A stretch of DNA of 64,000 nucleotides from Centroscyllium fabricii (GCA_051313645.2 JBNRSN020000005.1:108996001-109060000), one strand, 5' to 3'. Counted from the stretch's first letter, positions 51,390 to 58,614 are shown. The notes: a model not told the origin generated them from the letters alone. Numbers and translations are program-made.

Positions 51390-52259
51390 CTGAGCAGAGG
51401 AGGTATAGGTTTACTGCTGAATAGCCATTAAAATCTCAAGAAAATAGTCAGTCCAAAATATCAATGGAGCTACCAACTGTGAATCTGTAAAAATACGAGC
51501 AGTTTCTACTGATTGGGTAATGTCCTGGACTACTCTTACATGCATTTATTGTCCATTCAATGTACAATTACAAATCAAAATGTGATCATTCAAATAACCA
51601 ACAGAAAGTGGAGATCAAGTGCACAAAACAGCATCTGAACACCTAAAGTTGAGAAGGCGGTTTTCCCCCCTTCTCCAAGCTCCACATGACTTGACATGAA
51701 ATCACATGGATTTTTGGGTTCAGATCATTATTTAGGCTAGATGCATTCCTGGCATAGTCCTGCCCCTGACATGGTCTTACAACTAGAAATGTTTGTGGAA
51801 ATCCAAATGCTGCTTCAGGTCAGAGGTCTACAGCAGTGGTAAGGGCCTCTATCCAAAAACAGCAGCCAGAGAACTTCAACCCTGAAGATGATGGCCTTTA
51901 CTTGTAAGGAAATACTCATCTTTTTTCTGGCTCCATCTTCTTGCTGCTGACTCCTTCAGATCCTCAAATCTGAGAGGGTCTGAACACAGAACCTAGGGCC
52001 CACTTCTTCCTGGCAGCCCTCCAAACGGGCAGCTGCTTTGTGTTGGGGAGGAAACTACTGTCTGCCTCATTTGCATGGCTGCGCTGCTTAGAGTATAACT
52101 GCTCCCACTGCCGGTACTCCCCAGGAAATTTGAACAACATAAAGGGGGCAGAGACCTGGCTTCATGCTTGAAAGCTGAGCATTCCCCAGACTCAAAGGAG
52201 AGGAAAACTGCCCCCGTTAACATTTTGTGTGCCCAATTACAGCATTAATAATTACTTAC

Positions 52260-52469
52260 TCCAAAATTTAAGCCAATGGTCTCATACTGTCTATGTATCT
52301 TCTCTGCAAGATCATCAAACAGACGAACTATGGACGGTTTCTCCAGAAAGATTTCTTTGCTGAGCCCTGAAGAGACTATAGCCGGCCATGTTGCAACAAT
52401 GCAGTCCCAGTCATGGAGGTTGGCCAAGCAGACTCCATTGTGGTTTCCAAGAAGGCAATACAGAGCACC
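52260..52469 (-). CDS. PSME4: PSME4 coding exon ([23 protein letters not shown]...YETIGLNFG)
   Basis: Overlaps ORF 52245..52427; actag acceptor, gtaagt donor; 210 nt. Confidence 0.96.
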
Positions 52470-52751
52470 CTAGTTTAAAATATGCAAAGAAAAGAGAAAT
52501 ACTATTAAAAAACACATTTGAAACTGCTAATGAGCAAATCTGGAATAACAGAACAAAAAGTCAATCATTACAAAGAAACAAGTTTCAAATTGGAAGCAAG
52601 CAAACATTTCACAATTTAAATTTTATTTATTCATTCATGGGAGGCAGAGTTCTGGATGAGCTGCAGCTTGTACAAGAGGCTGGGATAGAAAACGTGTGAA
52701 GGAAGTCAAGCCTCGGAGTGACAGGCATAGATGAGAGTTTTGGCAGCAGAA

Positions 52752-53298
52752 TCATAGAGTAGTACAGCACAGAAGGAGGCCATTCAGCCCATCAAGTCTG
52801 TGCCGGCTCTTTCGAAGAGCATTCCAGTTAGTCCCACTCCCTGCTCTTTCCCCATATCCCTGCAATTTTTTCTCCTTCAAGTATTTATCCAATTCCCTTT
52901 TGAAGGGTACTATTGAATCTGTATCCACCAGTATATCAGGTAGTACCTTCCAAATCCTAACCACTCTTTGCATAAAAACATTTTTGTCCTCATGTTGCCT
53001 CTTGTTCTTTTGCCAATCACCTTAAATCTGTGCCCTCTCATTATCGACCCTTCAGCCATTGGAAATAGTTTCTCTTTATTTACTCTATCTAAACCCTTCA
53101 TGATTTTAAACAATTGTGTCAAATCTCCTCTTAGCCTTGTCTGCTCTAAGGAGAACAGCCCCAGCTTCTCCAGTCCATCCATGTAACTGTAATCCCTCAT
53201 CCCTGGAACCATGTTAGTAAATCTCTTCTGTACCCTCGCCAAAGCCTTCTTGTCCTTCCTGAAGTGTGGTGCCCAGAATTGGACACAATACTCCAGCA
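52752..53298 (-). mobile_element. CR1 3' fragment
   Basis: [26 protein letters not shown]. Confidence 0.88.
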
Positions 53299-53917
53299 GT
53301 GTGGTTAAGATTGGGGTGAGGGGGTGAAGAGACAAGAGGTAGTTTTTACAGTGTCAGCTGTGGCTCAGTTGGTAGCACACTCTCCTCGGAGTCAGAAGGT
53401 TGTGGGTCCAAGTCCCACTCCAGGGACTTGAGCATGTAAATCTAGGCTGAGACTCCAGTGCAGTGCTGAGGAAGTGCTGCAGTGTCGGAGGTGCCGGCTT
53501 TCGGATGAGATGTTAAACTGAGTCTGCTCTCTCAGGTGGATGTAAAAGATCCCAAGGCACTATTTCAAAGAAGAACAGGGGAGTTATCCCTGGTGTCCTG
53601 GCCAATATTTATCCCTAATGCCCCGCTTTCACTGGCGCCAGGAATATCCAGAATGGTCGCGATTGCGAAAATTACCCGGTTTCTTGCAGTTCTTAAATGA
53701 ATCTTAGTTGATTCCTAAATATTCGTACATTTCGCGTGAGTTCCTCTAACCTGCTGGAAAGTTTTTGCTTGTCAAAAACTTTCCACCGAAGTTCCAACCT
53801 CGGGAACCATTCTAATCCTTCTTAGCTGCATCGCACTCGCTTCTTCAACATTCTTGCGTTTCTGCGGCAAATTGACCAGGTCAGAGGTCACTGAGGGACG
53901 CATTTCACTTTAGAAAA

Positions 53918-54232
53918 ATGAACAGGAGAGCAGGACAATCTGGGAAGGCCAAGGGACGCGGCAAAGCCACCAAGCTCGCCCCAGAGCTGATTGAGGACAG
54001 CCCGAGGGAAGCAGCTGTACCTCCACACATCACTCCACCACATGTGGCCGAACCAGATCTCCCCTCGACAGAGGAGGAGCGCCCGCTGGAGTTTGAAGAC
54101 CAGCCGGGCGTGGTCGAGAACGAGGCCGACCATGCTGCCGAGGTGGAAGCTCCTCCATCCCCTGTGTCCCTGGGGTCAAAGGCAAAGAAGGCGAGGCTCC
54201 AGTCTAACCTGAGTCCAGAAGAACAGGAGCAG
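53918..54232 (+). CDS. Exon 1 of transposon-borne MADF (Myb/SANT-like) protein
   Basis: ATG at 53918, 105 codons, ends CAG|GTAACT; followed by a 90-bp AT-rich intron. Confidence 0.8.
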
Positions 54233-54322
54233 GTAACTGATATATTTATAACTGATAATCCTTTTTTAATAATCACTATCGTCAATTTGATTTTGTTTAC
54301 AACTATATTAATTTTATTCTAG

Positions 54323-55336
54323 GTGGCCCTCTTTCTGGAAGCCCATGACTTCATTTTTAACAAGAGGCGTGAGGACCACTGCTTCGCTGACCGGAAAAAC
54401 AAGGCGTGGGAGGACCTGGCCAACAGTATGGGCAAGCAGGTCAAGGCACTGACCACTTTTTTTGAGAGCATGCGGACGCAGGTGGGGAAGATGAGGATTA
54501 CAAAGAGTGGCCAGGGAACGATGGAGCTGACAGAGAGGCAGGAGTGGATCTGGAAACGCTTCCAGTTCCTGGTACCGCACATCAGCAAGGTCATCAGGCG
54601 GAACGTGCAGAGCCTCAAGCCTCCTACCACACAGCCGGCTCCTGGAGATCCAGAGAACAGGGATCATGAGGTGGACCTGCAGGAGGCTGATGTAAACACG
54701 CCACCGTTCCCCATCACCCCAACCTCCTGCATCACCACCGCCAGCTGCTGCAGCTGCAGAGGAGGAAAGGGGAGAGTGGCAGCAACGGAGGAAGAGGAGG
54801 ACATTGCAGGGGATATTCGCAAGTCAAGGGAGAGGCAGATGGAGCTGCTGGATATCCTTAAATCGCACCCTCTTCATGCTGTTCCCTTTCCGGAGCGCCT
54901 CAAGTACGCCGAATATATGGGGCATGCCTTTCAGCGATTGTCCACCGCTAAGTACATTGAGGTGAGGGACAAAATGTGGCAGATCATCTCGAGCACAGAT
55001 AAGGAGATGGATGAAATACAGCATTCCCACCAGGCAGCATCGCTAGGAGCACCTGCACCAGAACCAGCTGGCTATCGACAGAGACCATTCAGCTCATCCA
55101 CCCTGCCCATGTATCCTCCTCCTCCTCCTCCTCCTCCATGGAATCAACCCTACCAGCAGCAAGGCCAGTGGCCGTTGCAGCAGTCGCAGTGGCAGCCAAG
55201 GCCTGTGGTTCATCCTTCTTGGCAGCCAGTGGAAGCGCCGTGGATGTATCAGCAGGCAGGAACCTCCGGGCACAGTGAAGCCGCCACGGTCAGGAACGTC
55301 AGTCCAGCAGCCAACAGCCAGACACGGTTGCACTAG
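54323..55336 (+). CDS. Exon 2 of transposon-borne MADF protein (MADF domain, BESS-like segment, P/Q-rich tail)
   Basis: Acceptor ttttattctag|GTG in phase 0; FLEAHDFIFNK...RKNKAWEDLANSMG...FFESMRTQVGK resembles MADF; stop TAG ends at 55336. Confidence 0.82.
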   Translation: MALFLEAHDFIFNKRREDHCFADRKNKAWEDLANSMGKQVKALTTFFESMRTQVGKMRITKSGQGTMELTERQEWIWKRFQFLVPHISKVIRRNVQSLKPPTTQPAPGDPENRDHEVDLQEADVNTPPFPITPTSCITTASCCSCRGGKGRVAATEEEEDIAGDIRKSRERQMELLDILKSHPLHAVPFPERLKYAEYMGHAFQRLSTAKYIEVRDKMWQIISSTDKEMDEIQHSHQAASLGAPAPEPAGYRQRPFSSSTLPMYPPPPPPPPWNQPYQQQGQWPLQQSQWQPRPVVHPSWQPVEAPWMYQQAGTSGHSEAATVRNVSPAANSQTRLH

Positions 55337-55440
55337 TGGAGGATGTAGTTGTCAGCCTCTCTGATTTTAGCAGTGATGTGACCGAGTTTGAGGTCTGAAT
55401 TAAAATTTGTTAAATGTTAGTTCCAAAAAGTTGTTGTTCT

Positions 55441-55612
55441 GAGTTTTCAAAATTTCGTGTTTTAATAATAGTTCTTAAAATTTGTTGTTACATGTGAGTT
55501 TTATAAAATTGTTGTTTTAATAATCGTTCTTAAAATTTGTTGTTACATGTGAGTTTTATAAAATTGTTGTTTTAATATTAGTTCTAAAAATATGTTGTTA
55601 CATGTGAGTTTT
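55441..55612 (+). repeat. 55-bp AT-rich tandem repeat, about 3 copies, downstream of the MADF ORF
   Basis: gagtttt...gttgttacatgt units start at 55441, 55496, 55551 and (partial) 55606. Confidence 0.9.
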
Positions 55613-56639
55613 AAATTTTTTTACAAAAAATAATCCTTGTTTGCTGTTTAAATGTTGTTTTATTCCTGGTTTCCTTTTTTTGCTTAACACTTTATTTATC
55701 GCAATAAACATAACTTTCAAATTAATACTGTCTCAATTTATCAAAAAAGTCACACACCACCATGAATATGCCCGAATGTCAAGAACGATGCCGAATATCG
55801 TAAACTATTCGTAGCTAATTCTCAGTAGTCGTAACTTCATCGTGGAGGTCGTAGTGGATTCGAACAATCATTCGGCACATTCGTAAGTGGGTCGCACCTT
55901 ATTCGTGCACTTCTTACCTGATTCTTTGACTTCGTACTTGTTTCTTAATCTATTCCTGACATTCGGCATATCTTTCAAACCGAATGTCCAAGAATCTTTC
56001 GTTACACCTTCGTACCATCTCCCGAAAAGCCAAGAAATGAACACGAAATTTGACTTTTTTTCCCGAAACGCAAGAAATTTCGATTCGGGGAAATTCGGGA
56101 ATTCGTGATATTCTTAGCTCTAAGTGAAAGCGGGGTATTAATCAACATAACAAAACCAGATTATCTGGTCATTATCACATTGCGGTTTGTGGGAGCTTGC
56201 TGTAGCTGCCGCTTTCCCACATTACAACAGTGACCGCACTCCAAAAGTACTTCATTGGCTGTAAAGCACTTTGAGACGTCCGGTGGTTGTGAATGGCGCT
56301 ATATAAATGCAAGTCTTTCTTTTTTCATGATTGACTGGATGTACATTTTGAAGCTCAGATTGTGCACTCTCTAATTCAGCCTGAGTTAGCGTGTGGGAAG
56401 GGGAATGGAGTTGAGGACTAAAATAAGTCCAGAATAGACACCTTCCTAGAAATTCTGCAACAGGGTTCCAGCACAAAAATTAGAGATAATCTTTGAAAGA
56501 AAAAAGGTGCAGCAAAGAAATGAAAATGTAACCATTTCCCTCTCCAATGAATGAGAGATGTGAAAGACCTAGCTCATGTCAATGATAAAAATCCTTAAGA
56601 CACAAGTGAAGGGGCTAAATTGGATTGCCCTATATAGGG

Positions 56640-56960
56640 GAGCCAGCAGACAGGCCCCTCAGAATGTGCAAATGATTACAAACAGACGTCACGGCATACT
56701 CACAGGACCACCCTCACAAACAGGATGGGATCTCACAAATGCCAGGACAGTAGAGCAGAAAGTGACAAAGGCATGGATGAGTATTTTGGCAGCAGTGAAG
56801 ATTAAGTAAGGAGAGAAGGAGAAGATGGTCTTGGTGAAGGCTGCAGAGTAAACTTGTTCCAGGCCCAGCCAAGAAATTACAGGGAAGCAGGTGACCAACC
56901 CAACAGAGATGTAAATGACACAACTCGTTAATAGAACAGGAAACAAGGGGATCCTGCTCT
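56640..56960 (-). mobile_element. L2 RT fragment
   Basis: AAKILIHAFVT resembles the L2 motif AETLIHAFVTS. Confidence 0.55.
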
Positions 56961-57319
56961 ACACTCCCTTCCCACCATGCCCTCCCAACATCCCCACCAC
57001 ACCACCCCCCAACCATCCACATGACAGATCATTGTAGCAACTTATACCCAAGACAAAAGGCTTGTCCTTCCACTGAAAAACCAATAGCCAGCAATCATAA
57101 GAACATAAGTAGTAGGAGCAGGAGTAGGCCACACGGCCCCTCGGGCCTGCTCCACCATTCAATAGGATCATGGCTGATCCAAACTTAGACTCACGTCCAC
57201 TTCCCTGCCCGTTCCCCGTAACCCCAATCAAGGTCCATTAGGTACATCTCAGTTTACAGACCAGAAGCATTTGAAATAAGTAAATTCTTCTTCAAAACAC
57301 AATGCTTCCCTAAAGAACT

Positions 57320-57560
57320 AGCAGAAAATCAGACCAATGAGCTTACAATCCATTTCTATAGTCTTGAAAACAGGGTGAAAATTGGCATTGTTGAGGTGGA
57401 GTAGATCTGGAGTGATCTGGATCCCTAAATACCAAAACTCTGAACTGGTCAACAAAAGGAAAAAGAAGCTACAAACTGTTGGAGATGACGACAGTCCCAA
57501 AACCAAAACCTCGGATTTGATTTTATTCCCCAAAAGGCCAAATTGCTGTGCACAGTCCAA
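57320..57560 (-). mobile_element. L1/Tx1-type RT fragment
   Basis: KIKSEVL...FWYLGIQIT...NFHPVFKTI resembles the L1 RT YLG region. Confidence 0.55.
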
Positions 57561-58176
57561 AACATAAACATAAAAGGATGGAAAGCTGCAAGTGAGAGAC
57601 ATAAATCATCAGCATAGAGCAAGATTCTGGCCTGCCCTACAGATTCCCCCCTCTATGAATTTGTTAATGTAAATAAAGCAACTAAAGGTTCATTCTCAGT
57701 GCAAAAAGGAACAGGGATAATTGACATTACTGGCATAAATTCTGAAAATCTCAATCAAGGAAACCCAATCTATTGCACATAACCAATTAGGGAGAGTAAA
57801 ATGTGAAGACCAAGCTGACAAAGGTCTCCAAAATAGCTCTCAGAAAAGATCACTCAACTCTACTGAAAATTTAATTCTCCTTGGAGAAGACTAACAGTTG
57901 AATAGTTACATAATCTTTCAATGCAAGACTCTAAAGATTGCAAGCAGGAGAAACATGCATAGTTACTAGATTCTGACAATATTTTTTTTAATACAAATGA
58001 ACCACTCTATAACACAGAAGAAAAAGTGCACTACAGGCAGATTAACAGTTACAGAAAGATAATTTCAGATGAGATTCTCATCAATGCGAGAACCATTAAC
58101 AAACTGTTGTAACTGGACTGATATTGTAAGGGGGTGCTCTGATTGTTTAATTCTTCGTCATACACCAAAAACTTAC

Positions 58177-58308
58177 TTTCAATTGTTGCTGGCTTATATT
58201 CTGTTTGTCAGGACGCAAGTATTCCAGCACCAGTGGAATAAGATCTCGACAGCAAAAATTATAAGTCCCCAAGGCTGTGAAGAAAACATGCTGGGCTTTA
58301 CTACGCAC
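58177..58308 (-). CDS. PSME4: PSME4 coding exon ([44 protein letters not shown])
   Basis: Manual translation; tttgcag acceptor, gtaagt donor; 132 nt; the most 5' exon found in the window. Confidence 0.95.
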
Positions 58309-58614
58309 CTGCAAATGCATACATCATTATGAGAAAAAGACAAACTTTTTTTTTCACAACATAAATCAAACTTCTAATTACAAACATTATATTTTTTTAA
58401 ACTGCTTTAATGACTCATTTAATTAATGAGAAAAATAATGAACTGTAAATTATTAAAATTGTGTAAAATGTACATGACATTTTAATAAAAACTGTGTGTG
58501 GGTATATAACGCCAAAATATCGACATCAGCGTTCTATCATTTACATTTTGTCCATTAGTACGTAGATAACAGAACCTACAAGCATGTTAGAAATAAATAT
58601 ATAATTGTTTAGTA

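Follow-up and report, generated by a model that had tools for sequence, protein, structure and literature searches.

A MADF-Only Harbinger Derivative in a PSME4 Intron of Centroscyllium fabricii Belongs to a Two-Gene Family Whose Insertions Often Have Unequal Three-Base Flanks

The analyzed stretch of DNA (the window) comprises 64,000 nucleotides of the 7.2-Gb genome of a vertebrate, Centroscyllium fabricii (GCA_051313645.2, JBNRSN020000005.1:108996001-109060000). It contains a Harbinger-type mobile element at positions 53619-56137, which carries a single spliced gene for a DNA-binding protein of the MADF (Myb/SANT-like) type. The element's terminal inverted repeats (TIRs) are 15 bp long and match at 14 of 15 positions; the left one (53619-53633, plus strand) has a start common to 20 of 20 sister copies, and the right one is located at 56123-56137 on the minus strand. 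The three-base flanks on the plus strand are unequal, TAA on the left (53616-53618) and TTA on the right (56138-56140). The element splits a short interspersed element (SINE) into a 5′ part (53350-53615, start approximate) and a 3′ part (56141-56325, end approximate), both on the plus strand. This SINE has very high depth and joints across the element, and in contigs of sequencing runs it is continuous across the insertion. Since the SINE consensus at the site is TCA, the right flank, which differs from it by one transition, is likely the target, and the left TAA probably does not reproduce the base of the target. The type of the SINE would fit a cartilaginous fish.

Two exons on the minus strand, at 58150-58323 and 52248-52469, correspond to adjoining parts of human PSME4 (PA200), namely residues 979-1025 and 1026-1096. 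Since these exons lie on either side, the element is located in a minus-strand PSME4 intron (52470-58176) between the codons matching human residues 1025 and 1026, and the MADF gene is antisense to PSME4. An earlier note on this DNA had listed the 15-bp TIRs, the TAA/TTA flanks and the split SINE, all of which are present in the sequence as claimed. Its assignment of a Harbinger-type element with a spliced MADF gene antisense in a PSME4 intron is supported by the TIRs, the PSME4 exons and the Pfam match described below.

Exon 1 of the MADF gene (53918-54232, 105 codons) and exon 2 (54323-55336), both on the plus strand, are separated by a 90-bp phase 0 intron with GT..AG boundaries (54233-54322), and their joining gives a protein of 442 aa with no stop, as had been proposed in the earlier note. 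The GC content of the intron is 20%, versus 61% and 57% in the exons, and the GT..AG boundaries are kept in 76 of the 77 short sister copies aligned. In the sister family represented by locus L117 the intron is located at the same codon and has a length of 97 bp, so read-through would shift the frame. In addition, 80 metagenome Harbinger loci were collected via the transposase; the tail-to-tail partner matched MADF in all six cases sent for analysis (four above the cut-off) and was uninterrupted across the intron position in the five loci inspected. By homology rather than RNA, we take the MADF intron to be real. One low-depth contig of unspecified kind, assigned to a second organism, reads through the intron and gives no evidence on splicing. 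Runs X5 and X6, which carry a second organism label, contain the MADF region at about 96-99% identity with a depth near 3 and little SINE.

According to the profile search, which the earlier note had suggested, exon 2 matches MADF_DNA_bdg (PF10545; 27 bits, E 6e-6, Pfam cut-off 22), and the domain occupies 54338-54571. When exon 2 was used for protein searches, none of the 878 and 9 candidates proved to be a relative at E 1e-3; this is attributed to the word index, since the metagenome partners turned up later. The segment at 54791-55027, called BESS-like in the earlier note, is predicted to form three helices (pLDDT 73, pTM 0.37), with a helix pair predicted at its residues 39-48 and 52-78. 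No Pfam match to BESS (presumably PF02944) was found for exon 2 or for six aligned segments. Harbinger3_DR is another two-gene PIF/Harbinger element, and by analogy with it and with Pong this segment is possibly the transposase contact. A P/Q/W-rich tail is present in the protein sequence. The word "intact" used for this gene does not hold for the window copy: two deletions, one of 3 bp after 53923 and the other of 7 bp after 55308, occur in this copy alone and are absent in 19 close sisters. The family protein has 465 aa, and because of the frameshift caused by the 7-bp deletion, the 442-aa protein ends in residues that are not in the family's frame.

Downstream of exon 2, the plus strand contains three 55-bp tandem repeats in the 3′ untranslated region (55440-55613), whose copy number differs between sister copies, and an AATAAA hexamer at 55703-55708, placed near 55703 in the earlier note, which is likely the polyadenylation signal of the MADF gene. 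Short motifs with a TTC(G/T) core form subterminal arrays on the left (53647-53866) and on the right (55763-56122, 24 places listed). These motifs are enriched in the element in comparison with 300 Markov shuffles and are likely MADF binding sites, as judged from the sequence.

Genome-wide, the right-TIR pattern gave 1,510 exact matches (control, 7), and all 100 places listed on contig C1 were fetched. Among these first 100 right ends, 74 belonged to two-gene elements in which both TIRs are present (a segmental triplicate accounts for three of these), three to two-gene elements without a left TIR in the fetched stretch and 16 to MADF-only elements. The others were two with the transposase side only, two with the right end only, one element resembling a miniature inverted-repeat transposable element (MITE) and two of other families. 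No transposase-only element with both ends was found in this set. The search for sister copies with the TIR that the earlier note had suggested thus yielded mostly ordinary two-gene Harbingers. Among the loci of the family, L119-L121 (C1:316.5-316.7 Mb) represent a tandem segmental triplication, with identical flanks and a spacing of about 105 kb; L009 (C911:3142493-3147552) consists of two short elements in direct tandem that have one TTA in common; L075 is an 800-bp MITE-like derivative. L108 is a 687-bp element of a related family, with 74% in the ends.

The two-gene parent is 4.1 kb long, and its genes are arranged tail-to-tail. The additional 1.6 kb carries, on the opposite strand, a transposase of 436 aa (L078:583-1890) that matches DDE_Tnp_4 (PF13359) with 95 bits and contains the triad D192/D282/E319; no solved structure matched it at E 1. 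Of 70 two-gene copies aligned, 56 have an uninterrupted transposase open reading frame (ORF), and in 46 the two ORFs are both open. The parent family thus combines the DDE_Tnp_4 triad, a MADF second gene, short TIRs and a 3-bp TWA span, which are the features of PIF/Harbinger. This partner was located through the right-TIR pattern and not through a PF13359 search of the genome, which gave 72,583 candidates; 150 of them were scored, and none of the 30 loci taken was from this family. These 72,583 candidate DDE_Tnp_4 stretches show that the genome is heavily loaded with other families of the Harbinger type, and long open frames are frequent among them.

In the part that it shares with two-gene copies, the window copy has 95.8-99.2% identity to them; it lacks the transposase through a 1.6-kb deletion, which removed the whole gene. 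The two sides are joined at a 6-bp microhomology, CCACCA (55757-55762, plus strand), and the junction is identical in the first 30 of 30 short copies aligned. Exact junctions numbered 269 deleted and 1,327 undeleted in the whole genome, with no matches for the controls. Short copies are colinear with the autonomous parent, retain both ends and occupy new insertion sites of their own, as expected for deletion derivatives. Private change is equal in short and full copies (p 0.68).

For analysis of selection, 77 short copies from the first 84 deleted junctions listed were aligned; four without both ends, two of odd length and one with a nested insertion were dropped. The ratio of nonsynonymous to synonymous change (omega) in the MADF gene of these copies was 0.95 (confidence interval 0.66-1.40) for single-copy changes and 1.16 (0.66-2.14) for shared changes, so the dN/dS comparison suggested in the earlier note gave a neutral result. 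Four stops were observed versus 4.9 expected. The copies differ from the consensus by 1.0% on average, and 70 of the 77 have an ORF of at least 455 aa. In two-gene copies the values were 1.08 and 0.88 for MADF and 0.92 and 0.89 for the transposase, with a hint of constraint for shared changes in the MADF domain (0.44, z 2.05). In comparison with the sister family L117, omega was 0.27 in the MADF domain, 0.78 (weak constraint) in the helical segment, 1.19 in the linker and 1.38 in the tail. Since the domain is constrained against L117 and the short copies are neutral, MADF is a long-term working transposon protein that is a passenger in the short copies. A single fixed locus under purifying selection, which would characterize domestication, was not observed: there are at least 269 copies, omega is about 1 and the window copy is frameshifted.

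Taken together, these data indicate, with a probability of about 0.88, that the element is a young deletion derivative of a two-gene PIF/Harbinger transposon, present in at least 269 copies, likely moved in trans and carrying MADF as a neutral passenger. The earlier note had mentioned "just a recent deletion derivative" as a fallback, and this proved to be right, with two-gene Harbingers as relatives and neutral drift of MADF. According to the proposed scheme, microhomology repair at CCACCA would have produced the 1.6-kb deletion in the 4.1-kb parent, which removed the transposase gene and left both TIRs and both subterminal motif arrays in place. Because these ends are retained, MADF and transposase supplied by the 1,300-odd two-gene copies could bind and move the short element. 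The common ends and the equal age of short and full copies suggest that it spread to at least 269 copies through transposase given in trans by intact sisters. That most short copies still have an open MADF ORF would be due only to the young age of the burst, whose copies are about 1% from the consensus. The window copy was inserted into the SINE inside the PSME4 intron and later lost the 7 bp near the end of the ORF.

The earlier note had favored either a bipartite system, with complementation between MADF-only and transposase-only elements, or a mobile transcription factor whose tail would serve for activation. The MADF domain and the P/Q/W-rich tail are indeed present, and two of the 100 right ends (L073 and L140) lead into the transposase gene with no left TIR within the fetched stretch. 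However, none of the 100 right ends belongs to a transposase-only element with both ends, and both ORFs are open in 46 of 70 two-gene copies. Ordinary two-gene relatives and neutral decay, which the earlier note had named as refuting its idea, are what the data show. As for the transcription factor, the tail (omega 1.38) and linker (1.19) lack the constraint of the domain (0.27) relative to the 78% identical sister family, and the C-terminus of the window copy is frameshifted. Both variants are thus very improbable.

Several observations fit the deletion-derivative reading less well. The short copies fall into two tree groups that share one junction, which implies recombination between subfamilies or repeated deletion. 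Locus L112 (2,547 bp) contains a second, different transposase deletion in the same family. In the sister family, the 3.0-kb element L117 (C1:304248294-304258144; 78% identical) lost almost exactly the transposase coding sequence, and its junction carries a short duplicated stretch. MADF-only deletions therefore have at least two origins in the family and one in the sister family, with no reverse case with both ends. Such one-way loss of transposase and not of MADF is not demanded by a purely neutral model, although three origins are too few for a test. The omega values are based on counts corrected for CpG, transition and transversion classes and are neither tree-based nor fitted to a codon model.

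The one-way loss could mean that MADF-only copies are favored, either because the kept MADF (as cis elements or extra protein) aids spread or because loss of a harmful transposase does; the family would then be at the start of the split seen in Caenorhabditis inopinata. Besides the three separate transposase deletions, this would agree with the 16 MADF-only versus 0 transposase-only elements among the 100 right ends, where only one MITE-like element occurs, with the long ORF in 70 of 77 short copies, and with the same asymmetry in a nematode study (bioRxiv 10.64898/2026.05.26.728016). On the other hand, omega is about 1 and stops accumulate at the neutral rate; two-gene copies are five-fold commoner than short ones, so MADF is already supplied; and nearly all short copies share one junction, so their count represents one lucky founder. 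We consider such an advantage improbable, though less so than a bipartite system.

As originally posed, the element is an ordinary, young deletion derivative. What surprises, and carries more weight, is that some 30% of the family's insertions lie between three-base flanks that do not match. The flanks were analyzed in 152 copies with both ends (80 short and 72 two-gene; two segmental duplicates were dropped). TWA was found on both sides in 136 of them: 65 TAA/TAA, 29 TTA/TTA, 24 TAA/TTA and 18 TTA/TAA. The middle base is thus unequal in 42 of 136 TWA pairs (31%, 23-39%), including the window copy, and bases 1 and 3 are unequal in 10 and 7 of the 152 pairs. Short and full copies are alike in this respect (19/68 and 23/68). 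In these 42 pairs the identical flanks of the textbook description are lacking, and membership of PIF/Harbinger is based on protein and TIR. Unequal flanks are a trait of the family, and this observation is solid. An initial indication that only TAA/TTA mismatches occur was rejected, as the first 20 loci had been ranked by likeness to the window flanks and unbiased sets show both types.

For 60 of the 162 sites, a homologue of the empty site was identified in repeats, and 37 could be called. In matched pairs, the middle base of the empty site equals the flanks in 21 of 23 called. In the 12 called mismatched TWA pairs the target middle base is T in nine, A in two and C in one, and in 11 of the 12 the empty site equals one flank at this base. 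At the two remaining callable sites, one of the flanks is not TWA. Insertions L056 and L109 occupy the same spot of one repeat with the target TTA, and their flanks are TTA/TAA and TTA/TTA. Such findings agree with an overwriting of one end at the time of insertion. Two odd targets, each called from a single homologue, are ATA (L080) and AAA (L007); both insertions keep the odd flank on one side and have TAA on the other. The empty-site homologues span three bases at the site, and a TA or TTAA target was rejected on this basis.

We lean towards carry-over from the donor site as the mechanism of the unequal flanks. The transposase would cut the donor flanks with a 3-base stagger, and the element would leave with TWA overhangs; these would pair with the target even if the two are unequal at the middle base, and the donor base would then be fixed at one end by replication or repair. 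The stronger statement, that the three-base donor flank moves along with the element and becomes fixed on one side of the new site, so that a host base is rewritten in about one third of insertions, has only slightly better than even odds. Published work on mPing is in line with such steps: a 3-base 5′ stagger in the flanks has been proposed for its transposase (PMC4561436), and on entering Cas9 breaks the element brings the donor TTA along (PMC11254759).

Alternatively, the flanks could become unequal by error-prone filling of 3-base gaps, by conversion from other copies into the flank or by assembly polishing. Signs of recombination between subfamilies in short copies, the fact that the non-target flank is mostly the commoner TAA (9/11, p 0.07) and the little carry-over in the mPing data (PMC4561436) are compatible with these origins. 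At the same time, the change affects only the middle base and is limited to A/T, copies with unequal flanks are of no greater age than those with equal ones (private changes in 25 versus 54 copies, p 0.35), and the odd flanks of L080 and L007 are kept on one side with TAA on the other. At L014 (1501-1503 and 4029-4031), unique-flank contigs from four of four short-read runs pass through both unequal flanks with no other letter, in agreement with the assembly; polishing was rejected as the cause at this locus only. On balance, these other origins appear less likely than carry-over.

A number of points also weigh against carry-over. The yeast study reports that 45 of 46 new insertions of TCA-flanked mPing read TTA or TAA (PMC4561436), and free transposition leaves an intact duplication, according to PMC11254759. 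On the top strand of the element, each end shows an excess of TAA (89 and 83 of 136); this requires biased donors or targets, the two not being separable here. The two flanks are associated (Fisher p 1e-4), so carry-over would be only partial; full independence, seen with fewer copies (p 0.24), did not hold once the set was enlarged. Sites that are both mismatched and callable number only 12 of 162, and the homologues are diverged repeats. L014 is the sole mismatched locus checked against reads, and its runs come from two samples, perhaps the assembly's own source.

In the literature searched, outside which most subscription papers lay, no report of frequent natural flank mismatches was found. 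The mPing insertion table (PMC2836001, supplement 3) gives target sites only and not both junctions. Candidates without identical 3-bp flanks are excluded by design in the nematode study (bioRxiv 10.64898/2026.05.26.728016), and mining of transposable elements has also demanded identical target-site duplications (PMC2213677).

The unequal flanks are of interest for the end-joining step of PIF/Harbinger transposases: excision with overhangs is known for mPing, and the fate of these overhangs at natural insertions is undescribed in the literature seen. If carry-over is true, Harbingers would integrate like piggyBac and their flanks would record the donor, and finders that filter on identical target-site duplications would drop a large share of true copies. 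The mismatch is thus relevant to mPing/Pong genome-engineering tools and to annotation pipelines with such filters. The MADF-only element itself is a vertebrate example of a form known from a nematode, caught early; since the parent is still abundant, it offers a clean case for studying why it is the transposase and not MADF that Harbingers lose. The family is young, with more than 1,500 copies, many with both ORFs open, and is a candidate active vertebrate Harbinger and a candidate for recent horizontal transfer.

Two further features of the locus were noted. The element brings into the intron three AATAAA hexamers on the PSME4 strand (window positions 55696, 55664 and 54318), which may possibly act as premature polyadenylation signals for PSME4. 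Directly left of the SINE, at 52910-53300 on the minus strand, there is a fragment of the reverse-transcriptase end of a long interspersed element, which we take to be CR1-like.

As for known systems, MADF-only Harbingers that amplify have been described in C. inopinata (bioRxiv 10.64898/2026.05.26.728016, also PMC13668399). Harbinger-1M_cIno is likewise a TIR-bounded, TWA-flanked, amplified MADF-only derivative moved in trans, as is proposed here. In contrast, one intact transposase locus is left there, versus 1,327 undeleted and 269 deleted junctions in the present genome; MITEs dominate there and MITE-like elements are rare here (1/100); and the genes are head-to-head there and tail-to-tail here. 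The Pong/Ping system with mPing shares the DDE_Tnp_4 transposase with a Myb/SANT-like partner, 15-bp TIRs, the TWA target, subterminal motif arrays and deletion derivatives. It differs in the identical 3-bp duplications described in PMC11254759 and PMC2836001, whereas 31% of TWA pairs are mismatched here.

The nearest named transposases are those of Haliotis rubra (75% over 83%), Mercenaria, Mytilus and Littorina, and one unnamed protein shows 88%. The family resembles a marine-invertebrate Harbinger clade, to which metagenome relatives with a tail-to-tail MADF type are also similar. Unlike in the present family, helix 1 of MADF is not split by an intron in those relatives (five loci inspected), and the present family lives in a vertebrate genome of 7.2 Gb. 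Harbingers were undetected in the elephant shark, according to PMC9179366. Judging from these sequence relationships, recent horizontal transfer of the family into a vertebrate is possible.

Domesticated genes of the MSANTD/NAIF1 type originate from the Myb/SANT-like partner gene that Harbingers carry, and the element's MADF gene corresponds to the same kind of partner. Those genes are single-copy, fixed and under purifying selection, in contrast to the multi-copy, TIR-bounded and neutral gene described here. PiggyBac elements leave with TTAA target-site overhangs and may alter non-matching targets, and the proposed carry-over would be similar in both respects. PiggyBac belongs to another superfamily, with a 4-bp invariant target and a single protein, and mismatches are rare there, whereas in the present family the target itself has two common forms.

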